Part shown: piece after piece, positions 40,865-56,623 of the stretch
How positions within the stretch are numbered: the first letter of the stretch is position 1
How the letters are laid out: the number at the start of each line of letters is the position of its first letter
Origin: Rhodospirillales bacterium
GTDB taxonomy: Bacteria > Pseudomonadota > Alphaproteobacteria > Rhodospirillales > Casp-alpha2
Length of the DNA stretch: 64,000 bases
Reading direction: 5' to 3'
NCBI GenBank assembly: GCA_017640505.1
Contig: JAEPQO010000001.1
Span: 262,625 to 326,624 of the forward strand
Notes under the pieces: generated by a model
Told to the model about the DNA's origin: nothing
Database searches by the model: none
Seen by the model: only the letters and a program-made list of their open reading frames with translations
Program-made: the position numbers and the translations under genes

Positions 40865-42364
40865 TCAGACATCGAAATCCGCGGATAAACGTACGGGCGA
40901 CAAAGCGTTGCGCCACGCCGTCATATTGCGCGCGCGAGGATCGCGAACACGATCCGGCTCCGCGAGCCGCACCGGTTCCGAAAGCAGGCAACCAGCCACC
41001 GCATCAAGTCCGTCGTCGCGGCCGTTGCCACCCGGCTGCCATTCGCGCATTTCACGGATGAACGGACTGTCCCAGACGCGACGATGCGCGTTCAGGCGAC
41101 CCGCCGCAAGAACCGCATCGAATGCTTCGAGAATCCTTTCGCTCTTTCCCCGGCTGGACGCATGCTCAATCACTGCCGTCGCCAAGCCCGCGCGGTTCAA
41201 TTCGCGACGGAACAACCCTGGTAGAAACCGGCCGATACCATTTGTTTCGATGGTGACCGCCGGCACGAAATGCCGGCGCGCAAACGAGACTGCCTGCCGA
41301 CAAAGCTGCGTCGCCTCATCGATCCTGTCGACTATCGCAGGATTGTGCGTCAGGTATTCGATCCCGTGCAGCCAATACCCACCTTCCTGATCGGTAAAGA
41401 CGGCGGCGATTACGCTGGCATCGCCTTTGCCTGGCCGGCCGAAGCTCGGGTCCCAGAAACACGACGCCGAGATCAGCCGGCGTTCGTCAAGCCGCAGCAA
41501 AGGCTCGCCATTTCCCTCCCGGTACTCAAGCCTGCCTTCGTAAGGAATGATCCGATCCGGGTCGAGCCGCGAATCGACCACGTTCGTCGGTTCCAGCATC
41601 ATCTGCGATGCAAACTTCGCCGGCCCCGAACGCCGGCGGATCGCCTCGATTCTCTCCGCCGGGAACCGATCCGGCCAGCGCGTATCGCCCGTTTCGTCGT
41701 AGATGGGCAACGTAAGCCGCGTAAAACCGGCAAGGTAGGCAGCACTCTCGCCGGTTTCCGGCCGCGCACGATCTGCATAGACGGAGTAGTAAGTGTGCGG
41801 CGTTCCGACAAACAATCGCAAGCCTCCGGGCACGAGGATAAAATCGATCTCATCGAGACGTTCGCGCAGTTCCTCGCGTTTAAACGCCGTATCGCATGTA
41901 TTGGGAACTTCAACGTCATCGCAGATGACCACATCAGCGCGCGATCCCGTCACGTTGGCACCGATTCCCTTGGCAAGCATCGACGGATCACGCTGCTCGC
42001 GTCCTCTGTTGACCGTGAAGCGGTCCGACGCCCACTCTTCGGTCCGTGCAGGCCGGAGCCCTACGGACAGCGGGTGGCGCTCAAGAATACGACGAACGTT
42101 TCGCACCATCTTCTGCGCCAACTGATGATCCGCAGCCAGCACCATAATTCTGATTTCCGGGTCACATACCAGGAGCCAAGCAGCAAACAGACCCACCAAC
42201 GTCGACTTTCCGGAATTCCGGAATGCCATCAGCAATAACTCGCGATCCCCTTCGCGCCAGCGATCTTCGAGCCAAGCAGCGATTTCGAAATGAAGGTCCG
42301 GCGTGCTTAGTCTCTGAACGTCGTTCCAGGCAGCCAGAAACACAAGGAACGACGGCTGTTTCAT
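40865..42364 (-). CDS. phage terminase large subunit
   Basis: 499 aa. Walker A-like AFRNSGKST, Walker B-like ADVVICDDVE, C-terminal nuclease-sized domain. ATGA overlap with the upstream ORF. Confidence 0.75.
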   Translation of the reverse strand: MKQPSFLVFLAAWNDVQRLSTPDLHFEIAAWLEDRWREGDRELLLMAFRNSGKSTLVGLFAAWLLVCDPEIRIMVLAADHQLAQKMVRNVRRILERHPLSVGLRPARTEEWASDRFTVNRGREQRDPSMLAKGIGANVTGSRADVVICDDVEVPNTCDTAFKREELRERLDEIDFILVPGGLRLFVGTPHTYYSVYADRARPETGESAAYLAGFTRLTLPIYDETGDTRWPDRFPAERIEAIRRRSGPAKFASQMMLEPTNVVDSRLDPDRIIPYEGRLEYREGNGEPLLRLDERRLISASCFWDPSFGRPGKGDASVIAAVFTDQEGGYWLHGIEYLTHNPAIVDRIDEATQLCRQAVSFARRHFVPAVTIETNGIGRFLPGLFRRELNRAGLATAVIEHASSRGKSERILEAFDAVLAAGRLNAHRRVWDSPFIREMREWQPGGNGRDDGLDAVAGCLLSEPVRLAEPDRVRDPRARNMTAWRNALSPVRLSADFDV

Positions 42365-42735
42365 AATGGTGGCTCCTTTTCTTCTTTTGCTGTTTTCGGG
42401 TTTGAATATGCATCGACGCTGGCTTCGGCTCGGGCAACGATCGAAGCGGTGTCGGCGTTCCCGGCATCCCGCTGACCGAACGTCGCGTCCGCAGAGGCGG
42501 CCAGTTTCATGAGCGCCTCGATATGCTGTAGTGCGGCCTTACACGCTGCCTGATGTTGCTGAAACTCCTTTGCATCAGACGGTGGTTCGGCAAACGCTAC
42601 ACTCCGGTAGTTCTGAACTGCATGCCGAATGGATGCCGGTAAAAATTTACGCAACGCGCCCACGCCAACTTCAATCGGAGACTTCCGCGGCCCGCGAAAT
42701 CGCGGATGCTGATCTTGTGACGGCATGGGCATCAC
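42361..42735 (-). CDS. hypothetical protein in the terminase-small-subunit position
   Basis: 124 aa immediately 5' of the large terminase with overlapping stop/start codons on both sides. Positional inference only. Confidence 0.3.
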   Translation of the reverse strand: MMPMPSQDQHPRFRGPRKSPIEVGVGALRKFLPASIRHAVQNYRSVAFAEPPSDAKEFQQHQAACKAALQHIEALMKLAASADATFGQRDAGNADTASIVARAEASVDAYSNPKTAKEEKEPPL

Positions 42736-43217
42736 CAGGTAATCTGATCGGCGTGGCCTGTTCCTTTGGCAGGGGCGTCGATGCTTGAAAGCACTTTCCC
42801 ACCTGTGCCGATAACAGAATTCAGGATGCTGTTTCTCGTCTCCAGAAGGTTCAGCCGCTGTTGCGCTCTTTGGTTCTCACGCAAACTTTCGATGTTGAAA
42901 TCGAGAGCTCTACGGTCGTCAGCAATTGCATCATCAGTGTCGGCCTGAATTCCCTGAAGTAACGCGTTTGCGGACCCGCCGGTAGACGACACACCTCGCG
43001 CACCGAATGACGCACGAGCTGTCGCCTGGTTGCGTTTGGCCTGCTCGCGCATTTCCTTTTCGCGCCGCTGTTGCTCCATGCGTCTCGCCTGAACCTGCCG
43101 GTTCGTCGCAGCCTGCTGTGCACGTTGCTGGGCACGCGCCTGAGATTTGGCCTGCACAGCACCAACGGCGGTCGATACTGCAGACATCACGATTCCAGTT
43201 GTGACCGGATCACCCAT
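42732..43217 (-). CDS. hypothetical virion protein (coiled-coil, Q/R-rich)
   Basis: 161 aa. Hydrophobic N-terminus (TTGIVMSAVSTAVGAV), then a Q/R/A-rich helix. Occupies the position of T7 gp13/14-type small internal proteins. Confidence 0.35.
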   Translation of the reverse strand: MGDPVTTGIVMSAVSTAVGAVQAKSQARAQQRAQQAATNRQVQARRMEQQRREKEMREQAKRNQATARASFGARGVSSTGGSANALLQGIQADTDDAIADDRRALDFNIESLRENQRAQQRLNLLETRNSILNSVIGTGGKVLSSIDAPAKGTGHADQITW

Positions 43218-43241
43218 TACTCTCTCCTTCTCGTCGTCAAA

Positions 43242-45140
43242 TTAACCGTTGGCGGAAATTTTCGTGGCTACAGACAATAGTGTGAATGGCAACGGTACAT
43301 CCTGACGAACCGACCACATCGGTTCGGGTCCAACCGTCCGCCAACCGAGCGCGCGGACGGTCTTATCGCCGGTGAAGGTCGTCACCGGCTGATCCAGCAA
43401 AGACGCACCCAATGACTGAAAGGGGATCGCTTTGTAGCCGCGTCCGACATCAAGCGAAAGCGCCGCCGTATTCTGAAGCCGCAACGTTACAGAGATCGGA
43501 CGCACCTTTGTGCCAAGGCCACTGTTTACGGCGGAGAGGATTGGCGGCATCGGTTCGACAATGTGCTCATAGGCAAGACCGGCCTCAACCTTCGATGCGT
43601 CATAGACCAGTGTAATCTCGCCCGAGGAAACCGACGCGTCATCACGTGGAGACCCATCGGCGAGAACGCTCAATGTCCGACCTTCGAGATGAGAATAACC
43701 TGCCCACGTATCAGTTGCGGTTTCTTGGGTAGCGGCAATGGCACTATCAGTAGACAGGATGTCGTCGAACCGCTCGATCAAAACGTCTTCGTCACGCTCG
43801 ATCAGCAGATACGTATCGCCGCCGACAATGGCGACAGATAGAAAGCTGCCAGCTGTCGTTTGCACCGACCAAGCATTGACTTTTTCCGCACGATAAACCG
43901 TGAGCGTTCCAAGAGTTCCATCTCCCATTACCACATGCAGCAGTCGGCCTGCGTTGTCATAATCCTGATCGACCGGTGCATTGATGAGATGCTGTGCCGT
44001 GGTCGCAAGGTCGGTCGCCTGATATGCCTGCTCCACGTCTGCAAACAGGAACTCGCGGATGCCCGATCCATCCCGCGGCACAAAAATTGTCGCGCCGTCC
44101 ACGTCCCTCGGCGGCACCGATCTGTCGACCGGTGAGCCGATCCGCGTCTGTCGTTTAAGCTGCAGATTCTGCGGCGTTAACGGCTCGCCCGTCACCATCC
44201 ACTCTGCACCGGACGTGAAGACCTGAAGATGCCGGCCGGAGAACACGGCGCGAATGGCATTGACCTGATCGGACAGGATCGCGAACTCGATCGCTTCGTC
44301 ATCAAGTCCTTCGCCAAGATCAAAATTAAACAGGTCGGCGGATTTCGATATCCAGAGCCGGTTTGGCAAATCACGTGACCCACCGATAACCAGCCGGTCT
44401 TGGTGGAAACAGACGGACGACGGCCAGCCGCGATAGGAGGAGAACGCCTGTTCTTCCCAATCCTTTGTTGCGGCGGTGCCCGAAAGCGTTTCCTTGACCG
44501 TCGCGGTCGCAGATGTGGCGGATGCAACAGCGGTAATCTCGACTTCCTTGTTGCCGATCCGCAGACGACCGCCGACGTGTCCTGCATCGAACGCATCGGC
44601 GGACGCCGTCAACGTAATCGATCCTGACGTTGTGCTTGGCGTAAGCGTTATCGCTTCGTCCGCAAACTTGTGATGAGGCTGCTGAATGCGGTCGTCTTTC
44701 TCGAGAAACGTCCACGTATCAATGGCCCAGTCAGTATGCGATGTTCGCGTGATCTTGCGGGGCTCGATATCCGGATGAACCACGAATAGCGTATCCGCGC
44801 TCTGCACCCATTTGATCTCGGCAACCTGGGCTTCGGTCCAAGGCGTCGCGAAATCAGCGACCTGCTCACCGTCCTTATAGACATCCAGGTGTCCGTCAGT
44901 GAAGGCGAGCAGGTAGACCTGTTCAGTATTGAATTCGAACGCAACCAGTCGGCCGGCACCACGTGCAGTGTCGACATAGCGTAGGCCGGGTCTGCGTGTC
45001 ACGCCGCCCGTCGGATGGATGAACACATTTCGTAGTTTGCCTGCACCGTTGGCATAGGTTCGGAGATCGCCCCGGCCCAACAGGCGCGGCGAAATTTCGC
45101 CCCCTGTGAAGTTGGATTTATCGATGTTTATATGAACCAT
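43242..45140 (-). CDS. tail tubular protein B (T7 gp12-like)
   Basis: The N-terminus NFTGGEISPRLLGRGDLRTYANGAGKLRNVFIHPTGGVTRRPGLRYV parallels T7 gp12 LKGGISQQPDILRY.DQG..QVNGW....GLQKRPPL. It is followed by VAFEFNTEQVYLLAFTDG (compare INRDEHEQYYAVFTG). 632 aa. Confidence 0.65.
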   Translation of the reverse strand: MVHINIDKSNFTGGEISPRLLGRGDLRTYANGAGKLRNVFIHPTGGVTRRPGLRYVDTARGAGRLVAFEFNTEQVYLLAFTDGHLDVYKDGEQVADFATPWTEAQVAEIKWVQSADTLFVVHPDIEPRKITRTSHTDWAIDTWTFLEKDDRIQQPHHKFADEAITLTPSTTSGSITLTASADAFDAGHVGGRLRIGNKEVEITAVASATSATATVKETLSGTAATKDWEEQAFSSYRGWPSSVCFHQDRLVIGGSRDLPNRLWISKSADLFNFDLGEGLDDEAIEFAILSDQVNAIRAVFSGRHLQVFTSGAEWMVTGEPLTPQNLQLKRQTRIGSPVDRSVPPRDVDGATIFVPRDGSGIREFLFADVEQAYQATDLATTAQHLINAPVDQDYDNAGRLLHVVMGDGTLGTLTVYRAEKVNAWSVQTTAGSFLSVAIVGGDTYLLIERDEDVLIERFDDILSTDSAIAATQETATDTWAGYSHLEGRTLSVLADGSPRDDASVSSGEITLVYDASKVEAGLAYEHIVEPMPPILSAVNSGLGTKVRPISVTLRLQNTAALSLDVGRGYKAIPFQSLGASLLDQPVTTFTGDKTVRALGWRTVGPEPMWSVRQDVPLPFTLLSVATKISANG

Positions 45141-45709
45141 TACGAACGCACCTCTACGAGCGAAAAATCCTCGAGATGAACCGACGATTCCTGCTGACCA
45201 TCGATGATCTTGGCCTGCTGAAAACCGCTTTCAGCAAGCCGCGTCAGCACCTCTGAACGCGTTGTGCTGTCGGTCAGTGGGATGCAGAATTCCGCCGCCA
45301 AACGCACAATCAGCGCCTGGTCAAAGAACGGCGGGAAAGTTTGCTCGTCGGGCCGGAAAATATAGGTCAGCGTCACTTGTGACGCGTCGGTGTGCAAACG
45401 CCGCTCGGCGATGCGGTAATCGATCCCGCGGCCGCGACCGCCAACACCGGCTGAAAGGACACGCAGGAAATCACTCGGCAACTGATATGCGTAAGCATAA
45501 TCGGCGACCGGTTCCGCAGCGAGGCGCGCAAGGCTGATTTGTCCTGTTGCGAAACTCCATGGATATGCCGACAGAAGCGCATCGCGGGTCGGGCCGTAAA
45601 GGCTTGCCGCGACTTCTGCCTCGGCAGTACCGTCCTCGAACGAGGTAATGCTGTCCGCCCCCAGCTTCATGAGCGCGCGCGAACAAAGCGCGATACTGGT
45701 AAGAGCCAT
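45140..45709 (-). CDS. tail tubular protein A (T7 gp11-like)
   Basis: Start trimmed to ATG 45709 after AAGGAG. CSRALMKLGADSITSFEDGTAEAEVAASLY...YPWSFA parallels T7 gp11 [26 protein letters not shown]...RGWTFN. 189 aa versus 196 aa in T7. TAATG overlap with the gp12-like gene. Confidence 0.6.
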   Translation of the reverse strand: MALTSIALCSRALMKLGADSITSFEDGTAEAEVAASLYGPTRDALLSAYPWSFATGQISLARLAAEPVADYAYAYQLPSDFLRVLSAGVGGRGRGIDYRIAERRLHTDASQVTLTYIFRPDEQTFPPFFDQALIVRLAAEFCIPLTDSTTRSEVLTRLAESGFQQAKIIDGQQESSVHLEDFSLVEVRS

Positions 45710-45740
45710 CGTCTTCACTCCTTTGATGATGTCGGGACAT

Positions 45741-45764
45741 AAAAAAAGCGGCTTAAGCCGCCGG
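45741..45764 (-). terminator. intrinsic terminator after the 497-aa gene
   Basis: Minus-strand GCGGCTTAAGCCGC palindrome (45748-45761) followed by U7 (plus-strand A-run 45741-45747). Confidence 0.65.
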
Positions 45765-45785
45765 GTCGGGAAAATTCGGAAACCT

Positions 45786-47279
45786 TCAGTCCACAAATCC
45801 GAGCATGGAGGCATAAGATGTCGCCAGTTTCTTTGGCCCTGTTTCGACAAGCGCAGAACGAAATGCGTCCGTGGTCTTTGATCCGATAATTCCGTCAACC
45901 GTCAACGGCTCCGGTGCGGGCTGCCGGTGCTCCGCTGCCGCCTTTGCGCTCAGGTCGTTGAGACTTTCCTGTAACGCCTCGGCGGCGATGTTCGGCCGAT
46001 GCGAGGCGAATAAAGGCTGTACGTCTTTTTCAATCGTCTCCCTTAGGCCCGACGCTGATCCGCCGGTGCTCCGTTCCGTCTCTGCAAAACGCTTGAAGCG
46101 GCCAATGCCGAACGCCTCCTCCGCCCCGCCCGCGCCCCGTTTGGCGACGGTGCGTTTCAACGCGGCTTTGGTCTTCGAACCGGAAACGCCGTCGACCTTG
46201 AGGGGCTCCCCTAACAGTGAGAGCCCCGTCTGCAATGCCTTCACCACGTTCGCCTCGCCGTCATCCGCAACGGGCCGGGCGAGTTTGTCTGCGACGCGTT
46301 TCAACGCCCCGGCCACCGGTGCGCCGTCCGGCATTGCTAGGCCCTTCGGTTTCACAGGTACGCTGCGCACCGGTTCAGGTGCGACTAGGCGCCCTGTCTC
46401 ATCAGTCTTCGAAGGCTGGTCGCCATAATTTAAGCGGTAGAAATCCCGGCGGCGGTCTTCGATCTCCAGGCGCTTCGGATCATTGGACGGCAGTTTCCAC
46501 GACCACCCGCCAAGAATCTTGATTTCACGCTCGGTCAAATCGTCAACGTTCTTGAGCATCAGGTCGTCGAGATCGGCCTCAAGCTCGGCCGTGCCGTTGT
46601 CCTTGTTATCGTCGGCGACAATGGCCATGGCCGCTGCGCGCACGGACTCCGGGTAGGTGTCAGACGTCTCGGCCCTCTGCTCTACGTCGGCGCCGAGCTC
46701 TAAGCCCCCATCTGACTGAGAAAGTTCAAGAGGGCTGGCATCCGGCGCACCGTCGCCCTCGGCGTGCGGACCGAAAGGCGCATTTTCCGAATCCCTGAAC
46801 GTCTTGACGTCTTTGTCGACATCGATGATCAGGCCGCGCCGCTGCACCTCATCGCCTGCGCCATAGGGAATGTCGCCCAGGTCGTCCAATTCCTGCTCGG
46901 TGAAGATTTTGTCAATCCGGGTGTCAGCTCCGGATGCATCCAATGCGCCTTGAACGAGGTCGATGCAGTTTTTGCTGAACAGCTGATACTCACCCGGATT
47001 ACCCCGGGCATCGGCAATGTACTTCGCAGCTTTCTCGGCTTGCGTTTTGGTCAACGGAACCGAACGCTCGATCACGCTCGTCCTGCTCTCTCGGGCGGAA
47101 TCGTCGCGCACCGCGCCTGCCGAGCCCCCCATCACCGCACCGGTTTTTCCGAAAACAGTTTCGTCTCGGAGGTACTTGCCGACAATAGGCTGATTGATGC
47201 CCGGCCCGGTCACGCCGACTGAGAAATGGCCAAAACGACCTTCCTTGTCTGCGTAGATCGTCAGCTTATACTCACTCAT
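45786..47279 (-). CDS. putative cell-wall hydrolase: LRAT/NlpC-P60-like N-domain plus two peptidoglycan-binding-like repeats
   Basis: N-terminal His context (RFGHFSVGV) and a YQLFSKNCIDLVQ motif resembling the Y-x-L-x-x-NC-x-x-F catalytic Cys box of LRAT/NlpC-P60 enzymes. C-terminal VKALQTGLSLLGEPLKVDGVSGSKTKAAL and LTVDGIIGSKTTDAF (PG_binding_1-like). Confidence 0.45.
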   Translation of the reverse strand: MSEYKLTIYADKEGRFGHFSVGVTGPGINQPIVGKYLRDETVFGKTGAVMGGSAGAVRDDSARESRTSVIERSVPLTKTQAEKAAKYIADARGNPGEYQLFSKNCIDLVQGALDASGADTRIDKIFTEQELDDLGDIPYGAGDEVQRRGLIIDVDKDVKTFRDSENAPFGPHAEGDGAPDASPLELSQSDGGLELGADVEQRAETSDTYPESVRAAAMAIVADDNKDNGTAELEADLDDLMLKNVDDLTEREIKILGGWSWKLPSNDPKRLEIEDRRRDFYRLNYGDQPSKTDETGRLVAPEPVRSVPVKPKGLAMPDGAPVAGALKRVADKLARPVADDGEANVVKALQTGLSLLGEPLKVDGVSGSKTKAALKRTVAKRGAGGAEEAFGIGRFKRFAETERSTGGSASGLRETIEKDVQPLFASHRPNIAAEALQESLNDLSAKAAAEHRQPAPEPLTVDGIIGSKTTDAFRSALVETGPKKLATSYASMLGFVD

Positions 47280-47456
47280 AGTCTTGTACTCCTTGCGAAA
47301 GGTTACGAATCCGGCGCTGCCCGAAAGGATGGCACACAGGCACCTCTCGGTTCCGGATCAATTAAGTTTTGAAAAATGCGTAGGGCTCACTGGAGCTTCG
47401 AATTTTTCTCTCTGGCCCGTCCATACTCCAGAACAGCGAAACCAAGGAGAGAATTG

Positions 47457-47591
47457 ATGCCTGCTCAAATCGCAATCGGGCGCATACGTGCCATCATCGT
47501 GCCATTTCTCATTATGGCGTTGGTGACAATGTACTTTTTACCACACGCCTACCTCTTGGTAAAAAGCATGGCTACGAATACGCCCAACTAA
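47457..47591 (+). CDS. small single-pass membrane protein (hypothetical)
   Basis: AAGGAGA lies 6 nt before ATG 47457. 44 aa with one hydrophobic helix (AIIVPFLIMALVTMYFL). The only plus-strand candidate inside the cluster, in AT-rich DNA. Confidence 0.3.
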   Translation: MPAQIAIGRIRAIIVPFLIMALVTMYFLPHAYLLVKSMATNTPN

Positions 47592-47837
47592 GAAGTATGG
47601 CGCAACACAACCGGTGCGACAGACCAGATGCTAGGTGCACGTACGGACGTTGATCCAGCAGGCAATATCAGAAAAAAGCATGCCATCGACCAGAAAATGG
47701 ACCGCAATAGGAACCCATAAACTGCCGAACCGGCGATAAAAGAATAATCTGATTGTGTCGGCTCTGTTCGGAGACCCGGCTAAAGCCGCCGCGATGCTGT
47801 ATCATACTTACCTTCGTTTTCCGCCACCGCTGGGTAA

Positions 47838-48221
47838 TCACACACAAACCCAGTTGTCCAAACAAATGCCTGTAACCGGAATGCAGAACCGTTTGTTTGT
47901 TGAATAATACCCGACTGGGCGAGATATTGCTGTCTTCTGTGCCTCTTGCCGCAGACCCCGCCGCTCCTTTCGGCGTGCCGTCGCATCGTGGCGCTCCGTC
48001 TCGCCGCCCGGCTCCATCACGCCATCGACTTGGAGCTCATTGGCTTTCTGATACGCTTTGAAGCCATCGGACATCCGCTCATCCGGATAGGACGTCACGC
48101 CTTAACCGGGCGTCTTGTAGTAGCCGAGCGCCTTGAGTGCCGCCTTGGTCTGAAGTGTATCGTCTTCGTGGATCGGGGCGGGGCGGTCGACGTGACCGTG
48201 GAGTTTCAGAAGTAGGTACAT
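47838..48221 (-). pseudogene. peptidoglycan-binding-module paralog interrupted by an in-frame TAA
   Basis: MYLLLKLHGHVDRPAPIHEDDTLQTKAALKALGYYKTPG-stop(48102-48104)-GVTSYPDERMSDGFKAYQKANELQVDGVMEPGGETE aligns colinearly with the intact paralog at 49061-49669 (…YYKTPTFGMTSWPDEQMFEGIQAFQKAHNLKVDGVMKRGGETE). Confidence 0.7.
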
Positions 48222-48244
48222 ACTGTTTCTGCCTCGGGCTGTAG

Positions 48245-49060: not shown

Positions 49061-49669
49061 TTACATGTCCAGCCACTCATAGGGATCGTAACTTCCGCGA
49101 CCATAAGGAGAATATCGTTTCGGATTGATTCCCATTCCACCACCGCCGCCGCCCCGGAACGGTCTGGCATTCTTGGGGGGCGTCTGGTGGTCTTTTAGCT
49201 TGTCGAGCCTTTGTTTTCGACGGGTCAAGCCGTCCATGTATTTTTTCTTCGCTTCATCCTCAGCCTTGCTGCGCACATAGTTCTCCAGTGCCTCTCCATA
49301 TGAATTCGGCAGATTATTTTCAGTCTTGGCGTTTCGGCGCTCACGTTGAAGCGCGTCCCGTCGATCCTTCCGGCGCCCCGCGGCACCATGCTGAACCCGC
49401 TCAGCAGCCTGCGATCCAGCGAGCCGGATGTTCATCGACTGCTCTGTCTCTCCGCCACGCTTCATTACACCATCCACTTTAAGATTATGCGCTTTCTGGA
49501 ACGCCTGGATACCCTCGAACATCTGCTCATCTGGCCAGGACGTCATTCCAAAAGTCGGTGTCTTGTAATAGCCGAGCGCCTTGAGTGCCGCCTTGGTCTG
49601 GAGTGTGTCGTCTTCGTGGACCTGCGCGGCGCGGTCGATTCGGCCGGCAAGCTTCAGGGGATTGAACAT
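49061..49669 (-). CDS. protein with N-terminal peptidoglycan-binding-like module and charged, Gly-rich C-terminus
   Basis: Start trimmed to ATG 49669 (GAAGGAAA upstream), because the track ORF start 49735 would include the hairpin. TLQTKAALKALGYYKTP...FQKAHNLKVDGVMKRGGETEQ matches the PG_binding_1 pattern. Confidence 0.55.
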   Translation of the reverse strand: MFNPLKLAGRIDRAAQVHEDDTLQTKAALKALGYYKTPTFGMTSWPDEQMFEGIQAFQKAHNLKVDGVMKRGGETEQSMNIRLAGSQAAERVQHGAAGRRKDRRDALQRERRNAKTENNLPNSYGEALENYVRSKAEDEAKKKYMDGLTRRKQRLDKLKDHQTPPKNARPFRGGGGGGMGINPKRYSPYGRGSYDPYEWLDM

Positions 49670-49700
49670 CTCGGATTTCCTTCGGTTGATGAATATGGAA

Positions 49701-49728
49701 GGGCCACGCCGGTTTTTCGGCGTGGCCC
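49701..49728 (-). terminator. 11-bp GC hairpin (copy B of the cassette-junction hairpin)
   Basis: GGGCCACGCCG-5 nt-CGGCGTGGCCC, followed on the minus strand by CUUCCAUAUUCAU, a weak U-tract. Sits after the capsid operon and before the 202-aa gene. Confidence 0.45.
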
Positions 49729-49787
49729 CACCCATATGGGCGCCGGGAAGCCCCGGCAGGCAGTGGCGGCGAACCTGCCGCGCAGGT

Positions 49788-50057
49788 TTAGTCCGTATCG
49801 CTGCCGCCGACCTGCGTCATGTCGGCAACGTCGACAGTGCCGGACGCATTGGCGTTGACATAGAAGATGCCGCCTGCCGGCGTGCCGTCGGTGTCCACAT
49901 TCGCAAACAGCATGTCGCCGACACGCAGCATATCGGCCGCGTCGTTAAAGTATCCGGCAGTATCGACATCGGCCGCGGTGTCCACCGTCGTGTAATGCCA
50001 GAGCGTGAACCCGTTGGCATAGGCCAGCACGCTCAGGTCCTTCGATTTGAAGGCCAT
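49788..50057 (-). CDS. small hypothetical protein after the capsid gene (decoration/cement position)
   Basis: 89 aa, 27 nt downstream of the capsid stop, host-like codon usage. Function is positional inference only. Confidence 0.4.
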   Translation of the reverse strand: MAFKSKDLSVLAYANGFTLWHYTTVDTAADVDTAGYFNDAADMLRVGDMLFANVDTDGTPAGGIFYVNANASGTVDVADMTQVGGSDTD

Positions 50058-50084
50058 GATCGGTCTCCTTTCAGTTTTTCAGGA

Positions 50085-50903
50085 TCAGGATTCGAGGCAG
50101 CGCAGCGAGACAACGCCGGCCGTATCGACCAGCACCGAGCCCTGGCTCATCGAGTTGTTGATGAAATGAGCGGCACGGTCGCCGTGCCAGGTGATGTCGG
50201 TCTTCACATCGGAACCGACGGCATGACCGATGGCCGTCTTGTGGTACCAGTAGCAGTACCGAACATTCGACGTCTTGGTCAGTCCGGAGTGCGGCATCCA
50301 GAGCGTCCCCAGCCAGCGCTTGGCCTGGGTGCCCTTCCATGGCAGATCGTCATCGCCGATATAATCGGCGTGTGCGAACTCGTCGATTGCCAGCAGATCC
50401 GACCACTGTTTCCAGCCGACAATGGCGTAACGTTCACCGTCGTCCGGCACGTCGGCACCGCCCAGCATTTCAAATGCGGTCAGCACTTTGGCCTTCATCA
50501 GGCCATCGGCACCGGTACCGGCGTAGTTAGTCGAAGTGTCGAGTTGCTCGATCACAAGTTCGTCTGTCTTGCGGCCGAGTGCGTAGGCACCGGCGCGTGC
50601 GATGACGCCGCGTTCGTCATGTGCGGTCTTTAGTTCGTCCAGGCTGTCGACCCAATCACCCGCGTAATAGTCGTATAGCGTGCACTCCACGGGTTCATGA
50701 TCAACGTTCATTACCGGGACCTTGCCGTGACGAGCTTTGGTCGATGCAGTGCCCTTGCCGATCTTCTGGAAGGTGGTCGACGATCCTTTGATGTCGTTCT
50801 TGGTACGAACGGTGTTCCGAAGCTTCGAGCCCATCCGCTGGTAAGCCAGATGGACGTCCGCCTGAAAATGTTTGACGAACGATTGTTCGACGGAAGTGGA
50901 CAT
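50085..50903 (-). CDS. major capsid protein (T7 gp10-like, short form)
   Basis: 272 aa. FVKHFQADVHLAYQRMGSKLRNTVRTKNDIKGSSTTFQKIGKGTA...DELKTAHDERGVIARAGAYALGRKTDELVI parallels T7 gp10 FARTSVTTSRHMVRSISSGKSAQFPVLG...YDVRSEYTSQLGESLAMAADGAVL. Confidence 0.65.
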   Translation of the reverse strand: MSTSVEQSFVKHFQADVHLAYQRMGSKLRNTVRTKNDIKGSSTTFQKIGKGTASTKARHGKVPVMNVDHEPVECTLYDYYAGDWVDSLDELKTAHDERGVIARAGAYALGRKTDELVIEQLDTSTNYAGTGADGLMKAKVLTAFEMLGGADVPDDGERYAIVGWKQWSDLLAIDEFAHADYIGDDDLPWKGTQAKRWLGTLWMPHSGLTKTSNVRYCYWYHKTAIGHAVGSDVKTDITWHGDRAAHFINNSMSQGSVLVDTAGVVSLRCLES

Positions 50904-51183
50904 GGTCCATTCTCCATTTCGGTTTCAGTTGGTTTGAGAGAAACCGGCCGGCGCGGGTTATGGCGTCGCATTGTGCGACGCCGCCCGCGCTGCCGAGACG
51001 CGCTTTTAGGGCCAGGCGGGGTCATTGATCCTTACCCGGTTGTCCTAAAGCGAAAATGCTTAAGAAGTCGATGGCTTGATTAGGACGGGGGTGCCGCCGG
51101 AAGAAAGCGGCACCCCCGCCGGATGCGGGGGAGCTGCGAATACCCCTAACGCGCTCCACCCCGCCTCACATCCGGACCATGCG
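50904..51183 (-). other. 280-nt structured non-coding spacer between scaffold-like and capsid genes
   Basis: Hairpins GGCGTCGC-attgt-GCGACGCC (50962-50982) and GGGGGTGCCGC-9 nt-GCGGCACCCCC (51087-51117). The latter shares its C5 arm with an alternative hairpin CCCCCGC-cggat-GCGGGGG (51113-51131). Confidence 0.5.
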
Positions 51184-51897
51184 TCAGCCCGGATAGAGCT
51201 TTTCGAATCCGGCGCGGACTTTATTCACCATCGCCGGATCCTGATCGCGCCAGTAACGCGGGTCGGACATCATCTCGCGAAGTTTCTTCTCATCCACGCC
51301 GGCTCCAATCCGGTCACCGTCTCGGGCGATACCAGGTTCGTCCGCGGCCATCATACGATGCAGCGCGAGTACGCCTTCGAACGAGGATCCGAGTGCTGCC
51401 GTCACTTCTTCAGGCAGGTGCGCGCGTGCCCAGTCACCGAGTTGCCGCGACATCGCATTCCAACGTTCCTTGCCGCCGAAATACTCCTCAAGCCTGCCCT
51501 GTACGCCAGCGGCCTCGGCGCCGCGGCGGGCATCCTCGAGATGCGGTTCGACGTACTTGCGCGCCAAGTCATACACAAGCTGAGCCTGTTCATTGGTGAA
51601 CCCGGCCTGATGCAGTAGCTTGTCGACATCCGGATCGCTGGTGCGCTCACCGCAATCAATACAATAATCCGTAGGCGTTTCCGGCACGATGCCGGTACCG
51701 CGCGAGAACCGCTGCTCCAACGCCTGATACGATCGCCACAGCGACCCTGTTCGAACTTCGCCTTTCTCGTCATCCCAGAACTTGTCAGGCAGCCCCTTCG
51801 GTCGCGCGGGCTTCGACATGACTTCGGGCGGCTGGATGGCCGGCGCGTCGTCGATTACATCGGCAGGCGTGCTTGTCTCTTCGATGATATTGTTCAT
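51184..51897 (-). CDS. putative scaffolding/assembly protein
   Basis: 237 aa, acidic and helical, located between portal and capsid as in T7 gp9. No motif recognised. Confidence 0.4.
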   Translation of the reverse strand: MNNIIEETSTPADVIDDAPAIQPPEVMSKPARPKGLPDKFWDDEKGEVRTGSLWRSYQALEQRFSRGTGIVPETPTDYCIDCGERTSDPDVDKLLHQAGFTNEQAQLVYDLARKYVEPHLEDARRGAEAAGVQGRLEEYFGGKERWNAMSRQLGDWARAHLPEEVTAALGSSFEGVLALHRMMAADEPGIARDGDRIGAGVDEKKLREMMSDPRYWRDQDPAMVNKVRAGFEKLYPG

Positions 51898-51906
51898 TGT
51901 CTTCTC

Positions 51907-52182
51907 CTATTGGTCGACGTCGGAAGTAGAAACTGCCATGGACGTAGGTCCGTTTCGGCCACGTTCGGTCAGTGTCAGAATGTGATGAACGAGTTGGCGC
52001 TGCCCTTCGAGATGGCGGAGCTGCGCGTCACACGCCCCCGGCCCCAGCGTGCGCTCCATCGTGATGGAGCGCAGATAAGCTAGCATCTGCCGCCCGTCGC
52101 CACCCTGGAAACAGCGTGCCGCGATCAGAGCAAGCTCGGCCGCATCGGGCCGCGGATCGTTCGCAACCGCTTCACTGGACAT
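51907..52182 (-). CDS. small phage-associated hypothetical protein
   Basis: Start taken as ATG 52182, an 11-nt overlap with the portal stop. FQGGDGRQMLAYLRSIT...LEGQRQLVHHILTL resembles small conserved proteins found next to podovirus portal genes; recalled from memory, unverified. Confidence 0.35.
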   Translation of the reverse strand: MSSEAVANDPRPDAAELALIAARCFQGGDGRQMLAYLRSITMERTLGPGACDAQLRHLEGQRQLVHHILTLTERGRNGPTSMAVSTSDVDQ

Positions 52183-53809
52183 GTGCCGTCTCCGTTGCCA
52201 CGACTTCATCGGTGTCCGTGTCTGTCACGCCGGCGATCGGTACAGCACCGCTGAGAGCATCGCCGATGGCCCCCAGGATGTCCCCGTTCGCGCCGAGCCC
52301 GGGCACTTGCGGCAGATCCTCCGGGACCTCGGCAAGCTCCGCTTCGGTGCGGAGAATATCCTCTGGCACGCCGAATGCGCCCGCCAGGTATCGGGATGCC
52401 TTGAGCGGGTTCAGCAATTGCTGCGCTTCCGGCCCCATCGCCGTTACGGTGGTGATCCAGTCCCGCACCATGCCGGCTTCACGCTGGCGGCGATGACGTG
52501 CGAGTGGTGAGGTGTAGATCATCTCCACGATTCGGCCGTCGATTTCAAAACGACCGATCTCACCTCTACGCTGCAGAATACCAACAGCCCGGACAGCGAG
52601 TGGCGTTAGCAGTTCAGATTGCAAGCGACCGTATGTGGCACCCAAAAGCCGTGCCATTTCCATCGATCGTTCCAGCACTTCCGTTGCCGTCATGTCCGGC
52701 CTATCGGACTGACCCAGCATGTCGATCATCAACGCATGGCGGATGCGCCCCCGCATTTGTTCGAGCACATCGGTGGACAGCGTCATGTCGTTGGCGGGCC
52801 TGAGTGGCGTGAGTCCCGCCGAACCGACGGCCTTGGGAATGATGGTGCCAGGCTCCAGCTTGATCGTTGCCGGGTTGAGCACGCCGTCATCGTCGGCCTG
52901 CCAGATACCCGTGACGGCGATCGACGCGTTCTTCAAAATCAGTTCGACCACTTTGTTGGCAGTCTTGATATCCGGCAGCGCCTTCATCACCGGCGAACGT
53001 CCGTAGATTTCGCCAGGCGCCTTCACCCAGCGGAAGTTGATAAACGGCGATGAACGAAATGTACCGGTCCTGAGCATCTGCGTTTCGGCCGCCTCGCCTT
53101 CGCCACCTTCACGAATGGCGACATACTCGTACCCGCGGCGGGCAGGATAGACGGCCTCGATTACGGCAATCTTCTCGTTGCTTTCCGTCTCTTCGCCTTC
53201 GCTCTCGGTAAGACGGGCCTCGGGATAACGTTCCCGGAACTGCGCGACGGTGAGCTCCGAGCGCCGGAAAGTGGTGTCCAATTTGCCGCCAAGGCTTTCC
53301 TCGAAGACGACTTCGGAAAGCGGCACTGCGGTGAAACGGAACGCGGTGGGCTCGCCGGCCGGTGCTTCTTCGAACATCAGGCACGCAGTCCCTGCAGTAA
53401 CGAGATCGAGATAGCACTGGTGCATTTCAACTGCGAAATTGGACCGATCGAAATGCCCCTGCAGCACCGCTGCCGCATTGCCCAGGATCTGGCTCATTTG
53501 CGGATGCGCTTCTTCGGGCGCTTCACGCCCCGGCTTGAAATCGAACCACTGATCCCAAGGCGGCGTCAGTTCAGACAACAGACTTGCCGCTAGTTGATCA
53601 ACGGCGTCAGTCGCGGTGCCGTCATAGAGGCGCGTGCCTTTCCTAACGCCCGGCGCGGTATCCATGATCGCGGCTTCGCGTTGCGGCAGGGCATGTTCGT
53701 AACAGTCGCGCCAATGCCCTTCCCATGGTTGCCGGCGTTCTCTGGCGCGGCGGTAACGTTCTTTCAGTTTTTCCGGATCGGGGGAGGTTTCGCTCGTTGT
53801 CATCATCAC
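52172..53809 (-). CDS. portal (head-to-tail connector) protein, podovirus type
   Basis: 545 aa. EKLKERYRRARERRQPWEGHWRDCYEHALPQRE...DGTATDAVDQLAASLLSELTPPW parallels T7 gp8 VYERLKNDRAPYETRAQNCAQYTIPSLFP...ARGLNNLASKLMLALFP. Confidence 0.7.
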   Translation of the reverse strand: MMMTTSETSPDPEKLKERYRRARERRQPWEGHWRDCYEHALPQREAAIMDTAPGVRKGTRLYDGTATDAVDQLAASLLSELTPPWDQWFDFKPGREAPEEAHPQMSQILGNAAAVLQGHFDRSNFAVEMHQCYLDLVTAGTACLMFEEAPAGEPTAFRFTAVPLSEVVFEESLGGKLDTTFRRSELTVAQFRERYPEARLTESEGEETESNEKIAVIEAVYPARRGYEYVAIREGGEGEAAETQMLRTGTFRSSPFINFRWVKAPGEIYGRSPVMKALPDIKTANKVVELILKNASIAVTGIWQADDDGVLNPATIKLEPGTIIPKAVGSAGLTPLRPANDMTLSTDVLEQMRGRIRHALMIDMLGQSDRPDMTATEVLERSMEMARLLGATYGRLQSELLTPLAVRAVGILQRRGEIGRFEIDGRIVEMIYTSPLARHRRQREAGMVRDWITTVTAMGPEAQQLLNPLKASRYLAGAFGVPEDILRTEAELAEVPEDLPQVPGLGANGDILGAIGDALSGAVPIAGVTDTDTDEVVATETAHVQ

Positions 53810-54033
53810 TCTCCGAGTTTGTCCTTGAGCGGGTTTGCGGCTTGCACCGTGCTGGACGAGCCTGATCGCTCCTCGAGTACACCGCGTTCGGACGTGGCGA
53901 TGGTGCCGGCACGGCCGCGGCGGCGGCGCTCAATCGCTTCCAAACGACGTTCACGTTCGTCCGCTGCGGGATCCGGCGCCGGTGGCGGCGGCGGCAATGG
54001 TGCAGGCGCGGGTGGTGAGAAAAATCCCCCCAT
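53806..54033 (-). CDS. small Pro-rich protein, first gene of the portal operon
   Basis: AAGGAG lies 8 nt before ATG 54033. ATGA overlap with the portal start. 75 aa (PPAPAPLPPPPPAPDP, then an R/E-rich helix). Confidence 0.45.
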   Translation of the reverse strand: MGGFFSPPAPAPLPPPPPAPDPAADERERRLEAIERRRRGRAGTIATSERGVLEERSGSSSTVQAANPLKDKLGE

Positions 54034-54074
54034 GATCAGTCTCCTTTCTCAGGTTCGTGATGAAAATCAGGCAC

Positions 54075-54101
54075 AAAAAAAGGCGCCCGATTTGGGCGCC
54101 C
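54075..54101 (-). terminator. intrinsic terminator inside the leader of the portal operon
   Basis: Minus-strand GGGCGCCC-aaauc-GGGCGCC followed by U7, then GUGCCUGAUUUUCAUCAC. Lies between the predicted promoter and ATG 54033. Confidence 0.6.
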
Positions 54102-54154
54102 GAAGCGTGATTGCAGTTTAGCAGGGAAGGGCCGGTCCGGCCCGGTAACACAGC

Positions 54155-54195
54155 AGCCCCGGATTGCGGACACACTTGTCCCCCGTGACTTGAGG
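54155..54195 (-). repeat. conserved 5'-leader element, copy 2
   Basis: CCUCAAGUCACGGGGGACAAGUGUGUCCGCAAUCCGGGGCU is ~88% identical to 56553-56592. The GGAC/GUCC inner stem is kept while both loop differences fall in unpaired positions. Confidence 0.6.
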
Positions 54196-54197
54196 CC

Positions 54198-54226
54198 ACT
54201 TTAAAAAATACTTATTCGAGAGTCAA
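54198..54226 (-). promoter_or_regulatory. sigma70-type promoter P2 (portal operon)
   Basis: Minus-strand TTGACT (54221-54226), 17 nt, TAAAGT (54198-54203). The -35 extends to TTGACTC, which contains a GANTC site. Confidence 0.5.
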
Positions 54227-54251
54227 TAGATTTTTTTCGTGTTTTTAGTGT

Positions 54252-54528
54252 TTATGTCAACATCGCGGGTTTGATCGCGGGCACATCGCGCGGCGCGGCA
54301 AAAGCAGCAAGCATGCCGTCCTGCTTCGCCGCAAGCACTTGCGGGCTGCCAAGGTCGGGATCGTCCGGCTGACCTTCGAACGGTGGCGTGTCTGATTCGC
54401 CCGGCACCAGCGGCTCATACGACGGCGGATTGACCGCCCGGTCGGGCTTCGCTGGATGGCCCTCAGAATACCGCCCTTCTGATCGCCATTATACGCCGGG
54501 CGTTCTTCCCGGTCCGGCAGCTTGGGCT
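54252..54528 (-). pseudogene. 5'-truncated, frameshifted remnant of a paralog of the 397-aa gene
   Basis: Begins right after the stop of the 249-aa gene. KPKLPDREERPAYNGDQKGGIL, then after a 1-nt deletion EGHPAKPDRAVNPPSYEPLVPGESD. This aligns with APKLPDREEFPTHQPDPKDGIFKGRPAEPQAPLRTPPLTPPDTGEFHEPLVTPDQSD of 55279-56472. A 21-nt stretch is identical (54503-54523 = 55873-55893). Confidence 0.65.
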
Positions 54529-55278
54529 TTATCTCGGCGGCACCATTGAACGAATCTTATTGCCGCACATCAGCGACCAATCGTAAGCCTTGTCCCAAAA
54601 ATCGTTGTGCCGTTCGGGATATACCGGGTAAGGCCAACCGAGCATGTCGTACACCCGCGCCATGGCGGGGTTCGGCATGCCGGTCTCTTCGTTCCAGTAT
54701 GTTTCAACGTTCATTTCGTAGTGATAGTACCAGGCCCGCAACAGGTCTTCGCCGCCCGCGACCTCGCAGTACGTCTCGATGATCGGAGGCTCGGCGATCA
54801 GCAGGTAGCCCATTTCGTAGTTACCCGTCACCGCCCAGTCCTCGTGCCCGTCGAAGGCGCACATATCGATCCCGGGTACATGCGTCTTCAGATACTCATA
54901 TGCCTCATGGAGCTTCCGCGGGTCGGCAGGACAACGGCAGTACCATGCTTCGTCGTCGGGCCTTTTCTCCTCCGTTGGCGCCCACTCGGCCGACATAATG
55001 AATTCATTCCGCCCCAGCCGCTTCAGGCAGTTCATCAGCGGTTCATAATAGGATGTGATTTCCGGCACACCTTCCTTGCCGGGCCAGTTCGGCTCGTCGT
55101 CCATCACGCCGCTCCACTCAAAATCAGCCGGAAGAAGCACGGCTTTCCAGCCGCGCTCGGTCAACAGGCTCGCATCGCCTTCCCACAACCCCCTTGTGGG
55201 ACCGGCGGGGAGGAGGCGCTTCTGCGCCTCCTCGAGTTCCTGCGACTGACGTGCAAATACGGGTGTAATGCCGGTCAT
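54529..55278 (-). CDS. acidic W/Y/E-rich cytoplasmic protein of unknown function (immunity-like position)
   Basis: 249 aa. Its ATG directly abuts the TAG of the upstream gene (TAGATG). No signal peptide and no family recognised. Confidence 0.45.
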   Translation of the reverse strand: MTGITPVFARQSQELEEAQKRLLPAGPTRGLWEGDASLLTERGWKAVLLPADFEWSGVMDDEPNWPGKEGVPEITSYYEPLMNCLKRLGRNEFIMSAEWAPTEEKRPDDEAWYCRCPADPRKLHEAYEYLKTHVPGIDMCAFDGHEDWAVTGNYEMGYLLIAEPPIIETYCEVAGGEDLLRAWYYHYEMNVETYWNEETGMPNPAMARVYDMLGWPYPVYPERHNDFWDKAYDWSLMCGNKIRSMVPPR

Positions 55279-56472
55279 CTAGCTCTCCTCTCCGTAACGT
55301 CGTTTTATCTGATGAGTCTTGTACTCCGGATGCACGCTCGGCACCTGGATTTCCAACGTGAGACCATTCCCATCGCTCGGGCGGGACATGATGATGACCC
55401 CGGTCGGACTTTCGTATTTAAGCCGCCCCGGTCCCACGTGCTCGACCCTTGCGCCATCCGGGTCATCGCCGAACTTGCGCACCATCGCACGAAAATCGGC
55501 ATCGCGCTGGGATTCCGGTTTGCCCGTTTCGATGTGCATACCTTTGGCATTTCCATGCGTTGCCGTGCCATCGGACAGTCCCGCTTCCTTGACCAGTTGC
55601 GCCGTCGCCGGATCAAGCGCGTCGAGCGCCTTCTGCGTCTCCTCTGGCGGTTTCCCGCCTTTGGCGAACTCAACAGGTTCGGGAAGTTCCTTGAATTCCA
55701 GAATCTGCGGTCCGTTGATCATCGGGTCGTCGGACTGGTCCGGAGTGACGAGCGGTTCATGGAACTCGCCCGTATCCGGCGGCGTCAGCGGCGGCGTACG
55801 AAGCGGTGCCTGCGGCTCCGCCGGGCGACCCTTGAAAATACCGTCCTTCGGGTCGGGCTGGTGTGTCGGGAATTCTTCCCGGTCCGGCAGCTTCGGTGCC
55901 GTGTCCGTGCGCCCATGTTGACGGCGGAGTTGTTCCCCAATCGCGCCTGCAACAACACTCCCCCCGAACAACAAGGGCAGCGTCAAAGCACCCGGACCGA
56001 GCGCGACCTTTACGTCGCCTTGATCATCCTTACGCGAGCGTCGTCCGACGTCACCTGAACCGGTTTCGCGGTGCCCGCCTGCCTTGCCGGTAAGCTTTGC
56101 CAGTGTGCGGATGGTCTCGCCATTCGGATTGATCTGCCCGTCGACCTTGAGGCCGTTCTGCTTTTGGAACATTCGCGTCGCCTCGCGGGTCCGTTCGCCC
56201 CAATAGCCCGTCGGACCGTCGGTCTTTTCCAGATCGAGCGAGCCGGCGCGGCCCAGCATGGTTTCGACCTTGGCGACGTCGCGGCGGTCGTTCCTGCCCT
56301 GCTCGCCCACCGGACGGGCGAGCTTCGACGCATCGCCCAGGTTCGAGATTTCCGGTTCCGGCATAGGCTTCGGCGGCACGCGCCCGAACGGGTCACGCCC
56401 TTCGTTCCTCTTCCGGCCGTCACGCGGTCCGAACGGGTCGCCCGCAAATCCTGGCGCGTCAAAATTCCTCAT
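55279..56472 (-). CDS. modular protein: peptidoglycan-binding-like module, TM helix, Pro-rich linker, unknown C-terminal domain
   Basis: 397 aa. VAKVETMLGRAGSLDLEKTDGPTGYWGERTREATRMFQKQNGLKVDGQINPNGETIRTL (PG_binding_1-like), a hydrophobic segment VALGPGALTLPLLFGGSVVAGAIG, a P-rich linker and a ~130-aa C-domain. Confidence 0.5.
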   Translation of the reverse strand: MRNFDAPGFAGDPFGPRDGRKRNEGRDPFGRVPPKPMPEPEISNLGDASKLARPVGEQGRNDRRDVAKVETMLGRAGSLDLEKTDGPTGYWGERTREATRMFQKQNGLKVDGQINPNGETIRTLAKLTGKAGGHRETGSGDVGRRSRKDDQGDVKVALGPGALTLPLLFGGSVVAGAIGEQLRRQHGRTDTAPKLPDREEFPTHQPDPKDGIFKGRPAEPQAPLRTPPLTPPDTGEFHEPLVTPDQSDDPMINGPQILEFKELPEPVEFAKGGKPPEETQKALDALDPATAQLVKEAGLSDGTATHGNAKGMHIETGKPESQRDADFRAMVRKFGDDPDGARVEHVGPGRLKYESPTGVIIMSRPSDGNGLTLEIQVPSVHPEYKTHQIKRRYGEES

Positions 56473-56493: not shown

Positions 56494-56529
56494 CATATGA
56501 AAAGACCCCGCCGATTTTTCGGCAGGGTC
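56494..56529 (-). terminator. hairpin plus CUUUUCAUAU box (copy C)
   Basis: Minus-strand CCCUGCCG-aaaaau-CGGCGGGG, then UCUUUUCAUAUG, about 25 nt before the SD and ATG 56472. Confidence 0.5.
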
Positions 56530-56545
56530 CTGGGAACGGCTGAAA

Positions 56546-56592
56546 ATGAAAAAGCCCCGGACTGCGGACGCACCTGTCCCCGGGACTTGAGG
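56546..56592 (-). repeat. conserved 5'-leader element, copy 1, here ending in a U-run (terminator-like)
   Basis: CCUCAAGUCCCGGGGACAGGUGCGUCCGCAGUCCGGGGCU followed by UUUUCAUUUU. Paralogous to 54155-54195. Confidence 0.6.
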
Positions 56593-56594
56593 TC

Positions 56595-56623
56595 TTTGTA
56601 AAATTACCTCAGCGGAGAGTCAA
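56595..56623 (-). promoter_or_regulatory. sigma70-type promoter P1 (397-aa/249-aa operon)
   Basis: Minus-strand TTGACT (56618-56623), 17 nt, TACAAA (56595-56600). It has the same extended TTGACTCTC -35 as P2, including GANTC. Confidence 0.5.

Follow-up and report, generated by a model that had tools for sequence, protein, structure and literature searches.

A stretch of 64,000 nucleotides (nt) from the Rhodospirillales bacterium contig JAEPQO010000001.1, hereafter called the window and used as the reference for all coordinates, carries on its minus strand (40865-56472) a T7-like head-tail-terminase cluster that, taken as a whole, is probably a copy, rearranged and with parts deleted, of an old chromosomal element that much of the Rhodospirillales have in common. 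Across this order-level clade, we observe a phage-derived particle and packaging locus that has no means of self-propagation and is inherited with the chromosome under purifying selection, and we are confident that a non-autonomous, vertically inherited element is what the family is. From its sequences, the family is also a strong, apparently undescribed candidate for a gene transfer agent (GTA) of podoviral origin. An earlier note, made from the letters of the window alone, had proposed a GTA-like domesticated locus; the comparison with relatives upholds this through gene order, chromosomal position, selection, and the lack of an integrase, but the copy in the window turned out to be a damaged one.

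To describe the family, we compared around 100 architectures, obtained by mapping the window proteins and those of relatives (whose loci are labeled L001 and so on), over which a single gene order recurs (identical in about 60 loci) and defines a canonical element of 15-16 kilobases (kb). This order starts with an S24 (CI/LexA-like) repressor gene on the divergent strand (phrog_4, 4e-32), followed by a pair of genes for small proteins (about 120 and 132 amino acids, aa), and then by a late promoter with its conserved leader box and intrinsic terminator. Next come the genes of a 75-aa protein (p75), the portal, a Bbp19-like protein, the scaffold, the capsid, and an 89-aa protein (p89), then those of a gp11 adaptor, a gp12 nozzle, a gp14-like protein in some copies, and one or two fibers with a T7 gp17-type N-terminus (phrog_1640). 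After these come a 124-aa family and the large terminase (TerL), and the order ends with a 104-aa phage-family protein, an endolysin of the Hydrolase_2 family, and a holin of the GTA_holin_3TM family. About 15.3 kb lie between the S24 repressor gene and the last fiber gene of L020. No integrase, excisionase, polymerase, primase, or helicase gene was present in any of the roughly 100 copies inspected, four Pfam-annotated relatives included, nor did any copy seen encode a protein of gp15 or gp16 size, the open reading frames (ORFs) between gp12 and TerL in relatives being either fibers or shorter than 800 aa with fiber domains. The earlier note had read the missing fiber, lysis, and regulator genes as a hallmark of domestication, a view that the family does not support since it normally has gp17-type fibers, endolysin, holin, and S24 repressor. 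Cargo genes concentrate at two hot spots, between scaffold and capsid and between p89 and gp11, and vary from lineage to lineage; in Caenispirillum salinarum AK4 (L087), for instance, a gene for an S-adenosylmethionine-dependent methyltransferase is found amid the fiber genes (16702-17418).

The family is broad. Scanning one genome per species with the capsid sequence returned relatives in at least 257 species genomes, and the best 80 of these 257, from which the details are taken, are 74-98% identical to the query and include members of Terasakiella, Caenispirillum, Azospirillum, Roseospirillum, Roseospira, Marivibrio, Magnetovibrio, Magnetospirillum, Phaeospirillum, Telmatospirillum, and Thalassospiraceae. 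Isolates are found among the carriers, of which Terasakiella pusilla, C. salinarum, Roseospirillum parvum, Azospirillum endophyticum, Marivibrio halodurans, Roseospira visakhapatnamensis, and Telmatospirillum are examples, and Varunaivibrio sulfuroxidans is a further carrier. IMG/VR adds 168 copies, and a protein database 6616 clusters at E<=1e-10. In the 13 IMG/VR entries that reach both ends of the element, 13.6-17 kb separate the S24 gene from the last recognized gene, and neither an integrase nor a replication module was seen. These proteins are labeled "phage capsid protein" or "hypothetical" in databases, and IMG/VR lists the loci as viral.

Sequenced phages are by comparison remote. The nearest phage capsids are 59% (an unannotated fragment) and 47% (Pelagibacter phage EXVC031P) identical to that of the window, no phage record having a capsid more than 59% identical, and the nozzle and TerL reach 34-35% and 30-31%, respectively, with their closest phages, which are HTVC010P-type pelagiphages and Yersinia phages YeP4-6. 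With regard to this kinship, it had been noted in passing that the terminase of HTVC010P-type phages finds its nearest match in the genome sequence of a member of the Rhodospirillaceae (PMC8477408). These pelagiphages and GAP227-like podoviruses (YeP4-6, EXVC031P Hodr) share with the element the order portal, scaffold, capsid, gp11, gp12, gp14, but Hodr encodes internal proteins of gp15 and gp16 size (783 and 1247 aa) that the element lacks, and HTVC010P-type phages have early and replication modules, with an integrase in temperate members (PMC8477408), where the element has none. The element is the remnant of an HTVC010P/GAP227-like podovirus of which only particle, packaging, lysis, and control genes were kept.

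The position of the element in the chromosome and the divergence of its genes both speak for vertical inheritance. The comparison of the tldD-to-mutase interval among relatives, which the earlier note had called for, revealed synteny as well as purifying selection: an aminotransferase IV gene borders the element on the left in 22 loci and lysK does so in 17, the mutase gene borders it on the right in 7 loci and in the window, and both flanks are seen in L027, L071, and L073. Identities of host flanks and of element genes are positively correlated, with Pearson coefficients of 0.5-0.97 when the flank is aminotransferase IV or tldD and of 0.27-0.84 when it is lysK, and the nearest neighbor of a locus from a named genus belongs to the same genus or to an unnamed metagenome-assembled genome, never to another named genus. 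Between the window and the nine closest species, pairwise ratios of nonsynonymous to synonymous substitution rates (dN/dS) are 0.01-0.08 for the capsid, comparable with 0.02-0.07 for tldD, and 0.02-0.26 for other element genes. On the terminal branch of the window, this ratio (omega) is 0.04-0.06 for the structural genes, and the three-taxon estimate gives the same for L002, the sister of the window, which has fibers and lysis genes.

Departures from the canonical order are also informative. Some loci are split or interrupted by cargo and still keep the conserved genes; Roseospirillum has the head half alone at this site, and several genomes have the capsid-to-terminase half with no portal half nearby. 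In four lineages (L053, L058, L071, and L073), the tail and terminase half is lost and the capsid gene is truncated straight against the mutase gene, one of them (L058) having a stop inside the portal gene, and in L008 the portal gene is destroyed. L174 (Ga0209273_10000292, 664-14380) is their mirror image, as its whole head module from p75 to p89 is gone when tldD, leader, gp11, gp12, a fragmented gp14, TerL, and mutase are retained. We had also considered the 132-aa gene of L053 and L071 to be pseudogenized and have withdrawn this claim, the stops being natural C-terminal stops, so that the pseudogene claims that stand are those for the portal genes of L058 (internal stop) and L008 (damage). 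Half-deleted lineages are natural controls that show decay, and it is against this background that complete copies are maintained although the element is dispensable.

In the window itself, profile searches of the ORFs against Pfam, PHROGs, and NCBIfam, with PDB searches for some proteins, bear out every part of the T7-like cluster that the earlier note had recognized, namely portal, scaffold, capsid, gp11, gp12, and terminase (table 1), so that the structural module of T7-like or HTVC010P-type phages is complete. TerL has both a Walker A motif (SGKST) and an ICDDVE motif, and none of the 13 phage-derived genes that remain is truncated. The structural matches all belong to T7-type families, and the cluster holds neither a prohead protease nor a tape-measure gene. 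The 124-aa protein in the T7 gp18 position is possibly the small terminase, judging by its place; neither it nor the 497-aa protein, seen again in related loci but not always in the same place, was matched by a PDB sequence search. The insertion that the earlier note had placed ahead of the gp11-like gene is made up of the gene of this 497-aa protein and the cargo block. The gp11-like gene really starts at 45709 rather than at the called 45898, and a terminator-like hairpin with T-run (45762-45747) stands ahead of it. Among the earlier claims, the housekeeping flanks (tldD on one side, MAPEG and methylmalonyl-CoA mutase on the other) stand, the coupling overlaps between genes follow from the ORF coordinates, and the search across 64 kb again found no integrase, polymerase, repressor, holin, or fiber gene. 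The absence of core genes is true only for gp15 and gp16, as the 161-aa ORF is an internal virion protein of the gp14 type (PF24072). The element reaches past the bounds given in the earlier note, to two associated small genes that lie apart from the main cluster, and a base composition like that of host core genes could not be maintained, G+C being somewhat lower (0.53-0.59 over 42-51 kb versus 0.60-0.64 in the flanks), with the cargo block as the lowest point of the window (0.528). Outside the locus, those long ORFs of the window that were checked belong to housekeeping genes. The sequence is identical to that of a metagenome-assembled Rhodospirillales genome recovered from several samples. 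No tRNA gene is found at the element junction; away from the element, the window has a tRNA-Arg(CCT) gene (33262-33338, minus strand) and an alphaproteobacterial S-adenosylmethionine riboswitch (62885-62963, plus strand, 71.7 bits).

Table 1. Features of the phage-derived locus and its flanks in the window.
Feature	Coordinates	Strand	Match or remark
Pair of small genes (123 and 153 aa)	25275-26104	-	tblastn 1e-20 to 7e-28
Aminotransferase IV gene	26297-27154	+	adjoins the two small genes
Methylmalonyl-CoA mutase	38031-40211	+	flank of cluster
MAPEG	40213-40749	+	flank of cluster
Large terminase (TerL), T7 type	40865-42364	-	NCBIfam termin_lrg_T7 NF033889 8e-128; phrog_38 8.5e-77
124-aa protein, T7 gp18 position	42361-42735	-	phrog_31793 2e-13 (phage family of unknown function)
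161-aa gp14-like internal virion protein	42732-43217	-	T7_gp14 PF24072 8e-11; phrog_418
gp12-like tail nozzle	43242-45140	-	phrog_376 5e-149; PF25675
gp11-like tail adaptor	45140-45709	-	phrog_394 7e-50
497-aa protein, C-terminal PG_binding_3	45786-47279	-	PF09374 6e-8
Cargo block	47838-49669	-	three genes, the next three rows
Broken PG_binding_1 duplicate	47838-48341	-	stop-interrupted copy of N-terminal part of the 49061-49669 gene
DUF2927 protein	48310-49053	-	cargo block
PG_binding_1 protein	49061-49669	-	cargo block
89-aa protein (p89), conserved partner of capsid gene	49788-50057	-	phrog_18004
Major capsid protein	50085-50903	-	PF19821 8e-85; PDB 9eg4 3e-22
Scaffolding protein, T7 gp9 type	51184-51897	-	PF05396 3e-10; phrog_1018
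Bbp19-like small phage protein	51907-52209	-	PF25181 8e-15
Portal, T7 gp8 type	52172-53809	-	PF12236 3e-132; phrog_332 9e-107
75-aa protein (p75), first gene of structural operon	53806-54033	-	phrog_831, unknown function
Late promoter, leader box, terminator, second copy	54074-54226	-	ahead of p75
249-aa accessory cargo protein	54529-55278	-	no family match in profile searches
397-aa PG_binding_1 protein (p397)	55279-56472	-	PF01471 1e-9; accessory cargo under late-type promoter
Late promoter, leader box, terminator, first copy	56499-56623	-	upstream of 397-aa gene
tldD	56700-58136		flank of cluster

What is missing from the window copy becomes apparent from its closest relatives (L001-L007 and L077), which encode an endolysin, one or two fibers, two small proteins, and a holin between p89 and the gene of the 497-aa protein, a position that is occupied in the window by the PG_binding_1/DUF2927 cargo and the broken duplicate. 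The S24 gene is lacking in the loci of these relatives as well. The loss of this block from the window is a lineage-specific deletion with rearrangement, which makes the window copy a damaged member of the family and not its archetype. Besides, the two small genes of the window stand 28 kb from the structural genes, at the ancestral left junction marked by the aminotransferase IV gene, when in most relatives they sit between the S24 repressor gene and the late promoter. This split is common to the window and to the genome of L004, and as synonymous divergence (dS) between their tldD genes exceeds 1, it must be old in the clade, with both parts kept. Either the deletion is recent, or the remaining genes are still in use; on its own, the locus could at most make DNA-filled, fiberless particles with no release, so that the missing functions are either encoded elsewhere in the genome or the copy recently became non-functional. 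No relocated fiber-lysis operon was found, one metagenome scan with the leader box having given four loci.

The control region upstream of p75, with a sigma-70-like promoter, is conserved in the family; its layout is the same in all 37 loci displayed and was recovered by a pattern search in 50 of 104. An A-rich tract is followed by TTGAC(T/A), about 17 nt, and a TAnnnT-type -10; then, within roughly the first 30 transcribed bases, by a leader box of about 12 nt (consensus ACAnnTGyGyCC) flanked by G/C; and, 30-70 nt ahead of the start codon, by a strong hairpin and T-run terminator. The window has two copies of this arrangement. In the second, ahead of p75, the promoter (TTGACT, 17 nt, TAAAGT) spans 54226-54198 and is followed by the box (54183-54156) and the terminator (54101-54081 plus the T-run). 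The first combines TTGACT, 17 nt, and TACAAA with a box at 56581-56554 and its own hairpin and T-run terminator; its 28-nt box differs from that upstream of p75 by 3 mismatches (0 chance matches expected), and the region 56499-56623 shares homology with the promoter that lies close to tldD in L001-L003. Capsid operons that have parted from the portal genes in L074, L034, and L059 likewise have their own copy of promoter, box, and terminator. The "host-type promoters" of the earlier note have therefore to give way to a phage-style late promoter with leader box and terminator that is conserved in the family. In L175 (FLOH01000104.1, 417-1118), a lone leader box precedes a 190-aa gene, and the 3 kb around it contain nothing else of the element, so that the late-type promoter may control unlinked cargo. 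Two further features were considered and given up: an RNA hairpin with compensatory changes in the leader box, which we instead call a sequence box because of the asymmetry of its invariant positions (A..TG.G.C) and because the possible stems are not in the same register in all lineages, and a general terminator after the capsid/p89 pair, for which a strict hairpin plus T-run exists in 9 of 70 loci, hairpins with no T-run being common.

The two small proteins have confident AlphaFold models (predicted local distance difference test scores of 86 and 85), for which Foldseek returned nothing significant against the PDB; a PDB-sequence profile search, Pfam, PHROGs, and NCBIfam were likewise empty. 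The 153-aa protein has weak, non-significant structural matches to papain-like cysteine peptidases (E 0.06-0.8), and His36, Cys37, and Cys101 are invariant. By functional analogy only, the layout resembles those of antitermination-controlled phage late operons and of the Caulobacter GTA (CcGTA) cluster: as with the GafYZ of CcGTA and the Q of lambdoid phages, a long structural operon lies behind a promoter-proximal terminator with small dedicated regulator candidates adjacent (PMC11150451). No likeness of sequence or fold was found between the two small proteins and any known regulator, and antitermination is here put forward as a hypothesis.

A working model of the intact element would run as follows. 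Upon loss of repression, the two small proteins would be made, and one of them would enable RNA polymerase either to initiate at the late promoter or to pass the leader terminator. Heads with tail stubs and fibers would then be assembled in part of the population, the terminase would load them with chromosomal DNA, and holin and endolysin would free the particles. Delivery would be to the periplasm only, as the loss of gp15 and gp16 suggests, and import would fall to the competence proteins of the recipient. For RcGTA (Rhodogtaviriformidae), both periplasmic delivery and DNA import by recipient competence proteins are established.

The element has several traits in common with RcGTA. Both are compact chromosomal clusters of head, tail, and terminase genes (around 15 kb) with no integrase or replication genes, vertically inherited over an order-level clade under strong purifying selection and sometimes split; the holin of the window's relatives belongs to the Pfam family GTA_holin_3TM; and both miss a full DNA-ejection apparatus, so that uptake by the recipient may be needed in either case. 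The two nevertheless differ in descent and control, the module of the window being of the T7/HTVC010P podovirus type when that of RcGTA is of the HK97 siphovirus type, with unrelated genes, and S24/late-promoter control in the family contrasting with the CtrA/GafA-based control of RcGTA. In addition, the host order is Rhodospirillales, and the capacity of the head is probably larger than the locus. Faecalibacterium prausnitzii has a GTA-like element, FpGTA, that is thought to form podovirus-like particles (PMC12946183), which qualifies the suggestion of the earlier note that a podovirus-derived GTA would be new; in the literature searched, we found no T7-like one from Alphaproteobacteria. FpGTA differs in coming from Firmicutes, in having two operons, and in host-DNA packaging shown by sequencing; the alphaproteobacterial family was set against it by description only. 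With the class of GTAs in general, the family shares chromosomal particle genes, vertical inheritance, and no autonomous replication, integration, or excision, and the receptor-binding and release set of that class is present in relatives and missing in the 64-kb window. A capsid-forming phage-inducible chromosomal island would be a poor description, for integrase and replication genes are absent and an adaptor and a nozzle, together with fibers in relatives, are encoded by the element itself.

Several observations weigh against the interpretation as a GTA. No endolysin, fiber, holin, or S24 gene is found in the 64 kb of the window, and the loss of half of the element or of its portal in L053, L058, L071, L073, L174, and L008 makes the element dispensable. 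Correlation with host flanks, when computed on ranks, is only moderate at deep divergence. The combination of a divergent S24 repressor gene with a late promoter and terminator is control in the style of a prophage and not of a host. The matched capsid structure (9eg4, "Phage major capsid protein") has seven chains and the genomes of related phages are 32-37 kb, from which, judging the head of the element by these relatives, a T=7 head (triangulation number) is probable; it could hold the whole 16-kb locus, its capacity probably exceeding locus size, which is not so for classical GTAs. As for the switch, the two small proteins are by their position the obvious trans-acting candidates, and an antiterminator or activator role for them is a guess. 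That the family functions as a GTA is drawn from gene content and evolutionary pattern only, and we regard it as a close call that falls just short of probable. The fuller proposal, of an ancient T7/HTVC010P-derived GTA present across much of the Rhodospirillales and independent of RcGTA, with a switch made of repressor, small proteins, and leader terminator, and with periplasm-only delivery, is possible and should be taken as tentative.

Other explanations have been weighed against the same data. The window copy could be a defective remnant on its way to loss, its intact frames merely reflecting how recent the damage is, which we judge doubtful though far from negligible: endolysin, fiber, and holin, which the window lacks along with S24, are kept by L001-L007 and L077 (whose loci have no S24 either), other independent losses occurred in the same clade (the destroyed portal of L008, the deleted head module of L174), and the broken PG_binding_1 duplicate and low G+C mark a deletion site. 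The full length of all 13 remaining phage-derived genes is at odds with this account, as are a terminal-branch omega that is not above that of the sister keeping the block and the conservation of the detached small-gene pair and of both late promoters. It is very improbable, by contrast, that the loci are genuine temperate podoviruses that repeatedly integrated at one attachment site by means of host or unlinked functions. Such phages would account for the S24 repressor, the late promoter with its terminator, and the lysis cassette; IMG/VR pipelines do call the regions proviruses, and the HTVC010P-type relatives include temperate phages with integrases (PMC8477408). Yet the genes for integration, excision, and replication are found in 0 of about 100 copies and the locus leaves no room for them, as the L020 span illustrates; the junction has no tRNA; element and host flanks co-diverge; loci that are often split or interrupted by cargo keep the conserved genes; and phage capsids stay at or below 59% identity.

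A domesticated role other than that of a conventional GTA, such as the in situ packaging of the neighboring chromosome in a manner akin to lateral transduction, or stress-induced lysis and release for kin, is unlikely on present evidence, albeit compatible with much of it. T7-type terminases cut at defined sites and TerL is of this type, the likely T=7 head exceeds the locus in size, the chromosomal position is fixed and conserved, the S24 repressor suggests damage-inducible control, and peptidoglycan-binding cargo is abundant under the late promoter. We identified neither a pac or cos site nor a terminal repeat, and a conventional GTA fits the same evidence.

In the full-text literature searched, we found no description of this element, which would add to the GTA-like domesticated phages of Alphaproteobacteria one whose viral lineage has no earlier record there in such a role. 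Particles with about 10 kb of DNA, induced by mitomycin in Azospirillum, have been read as GTAs (PMC3899980), and a prophage-like region of about that size was not found in strain B510 (PMC2818188). We attempted to link these particles to the present locus, and the link could not be made. The original report is said to have described siphovirus-like particles.

To our knowledge, only a handful of GTAs have been described, and those studied in depth go back to long-tailed phages. If the interpretation as a GTA is true, Alphaproteobacteria would have seen a second, independent, and equally ancient domestication, this time of a short-tailed T7-like virus, and bacteria would have repeatedly turned phages into gene-exchange devices. 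The provirus label that automated pipelines give to these loci inflates estimates of lysogeny in Rhodospirillales. The family would also offer a new experimental system in the cultivable Terasakiella, Caenispirillum, Azospirillum, Magnetospirillum, and Varunaivibrio, in which the intact, split, and half-deleted copies, that of the window among them, form a ready-made comparison series, and it would allow tests of which phage parts domestication drops or keeps and of how such elements are controlled.

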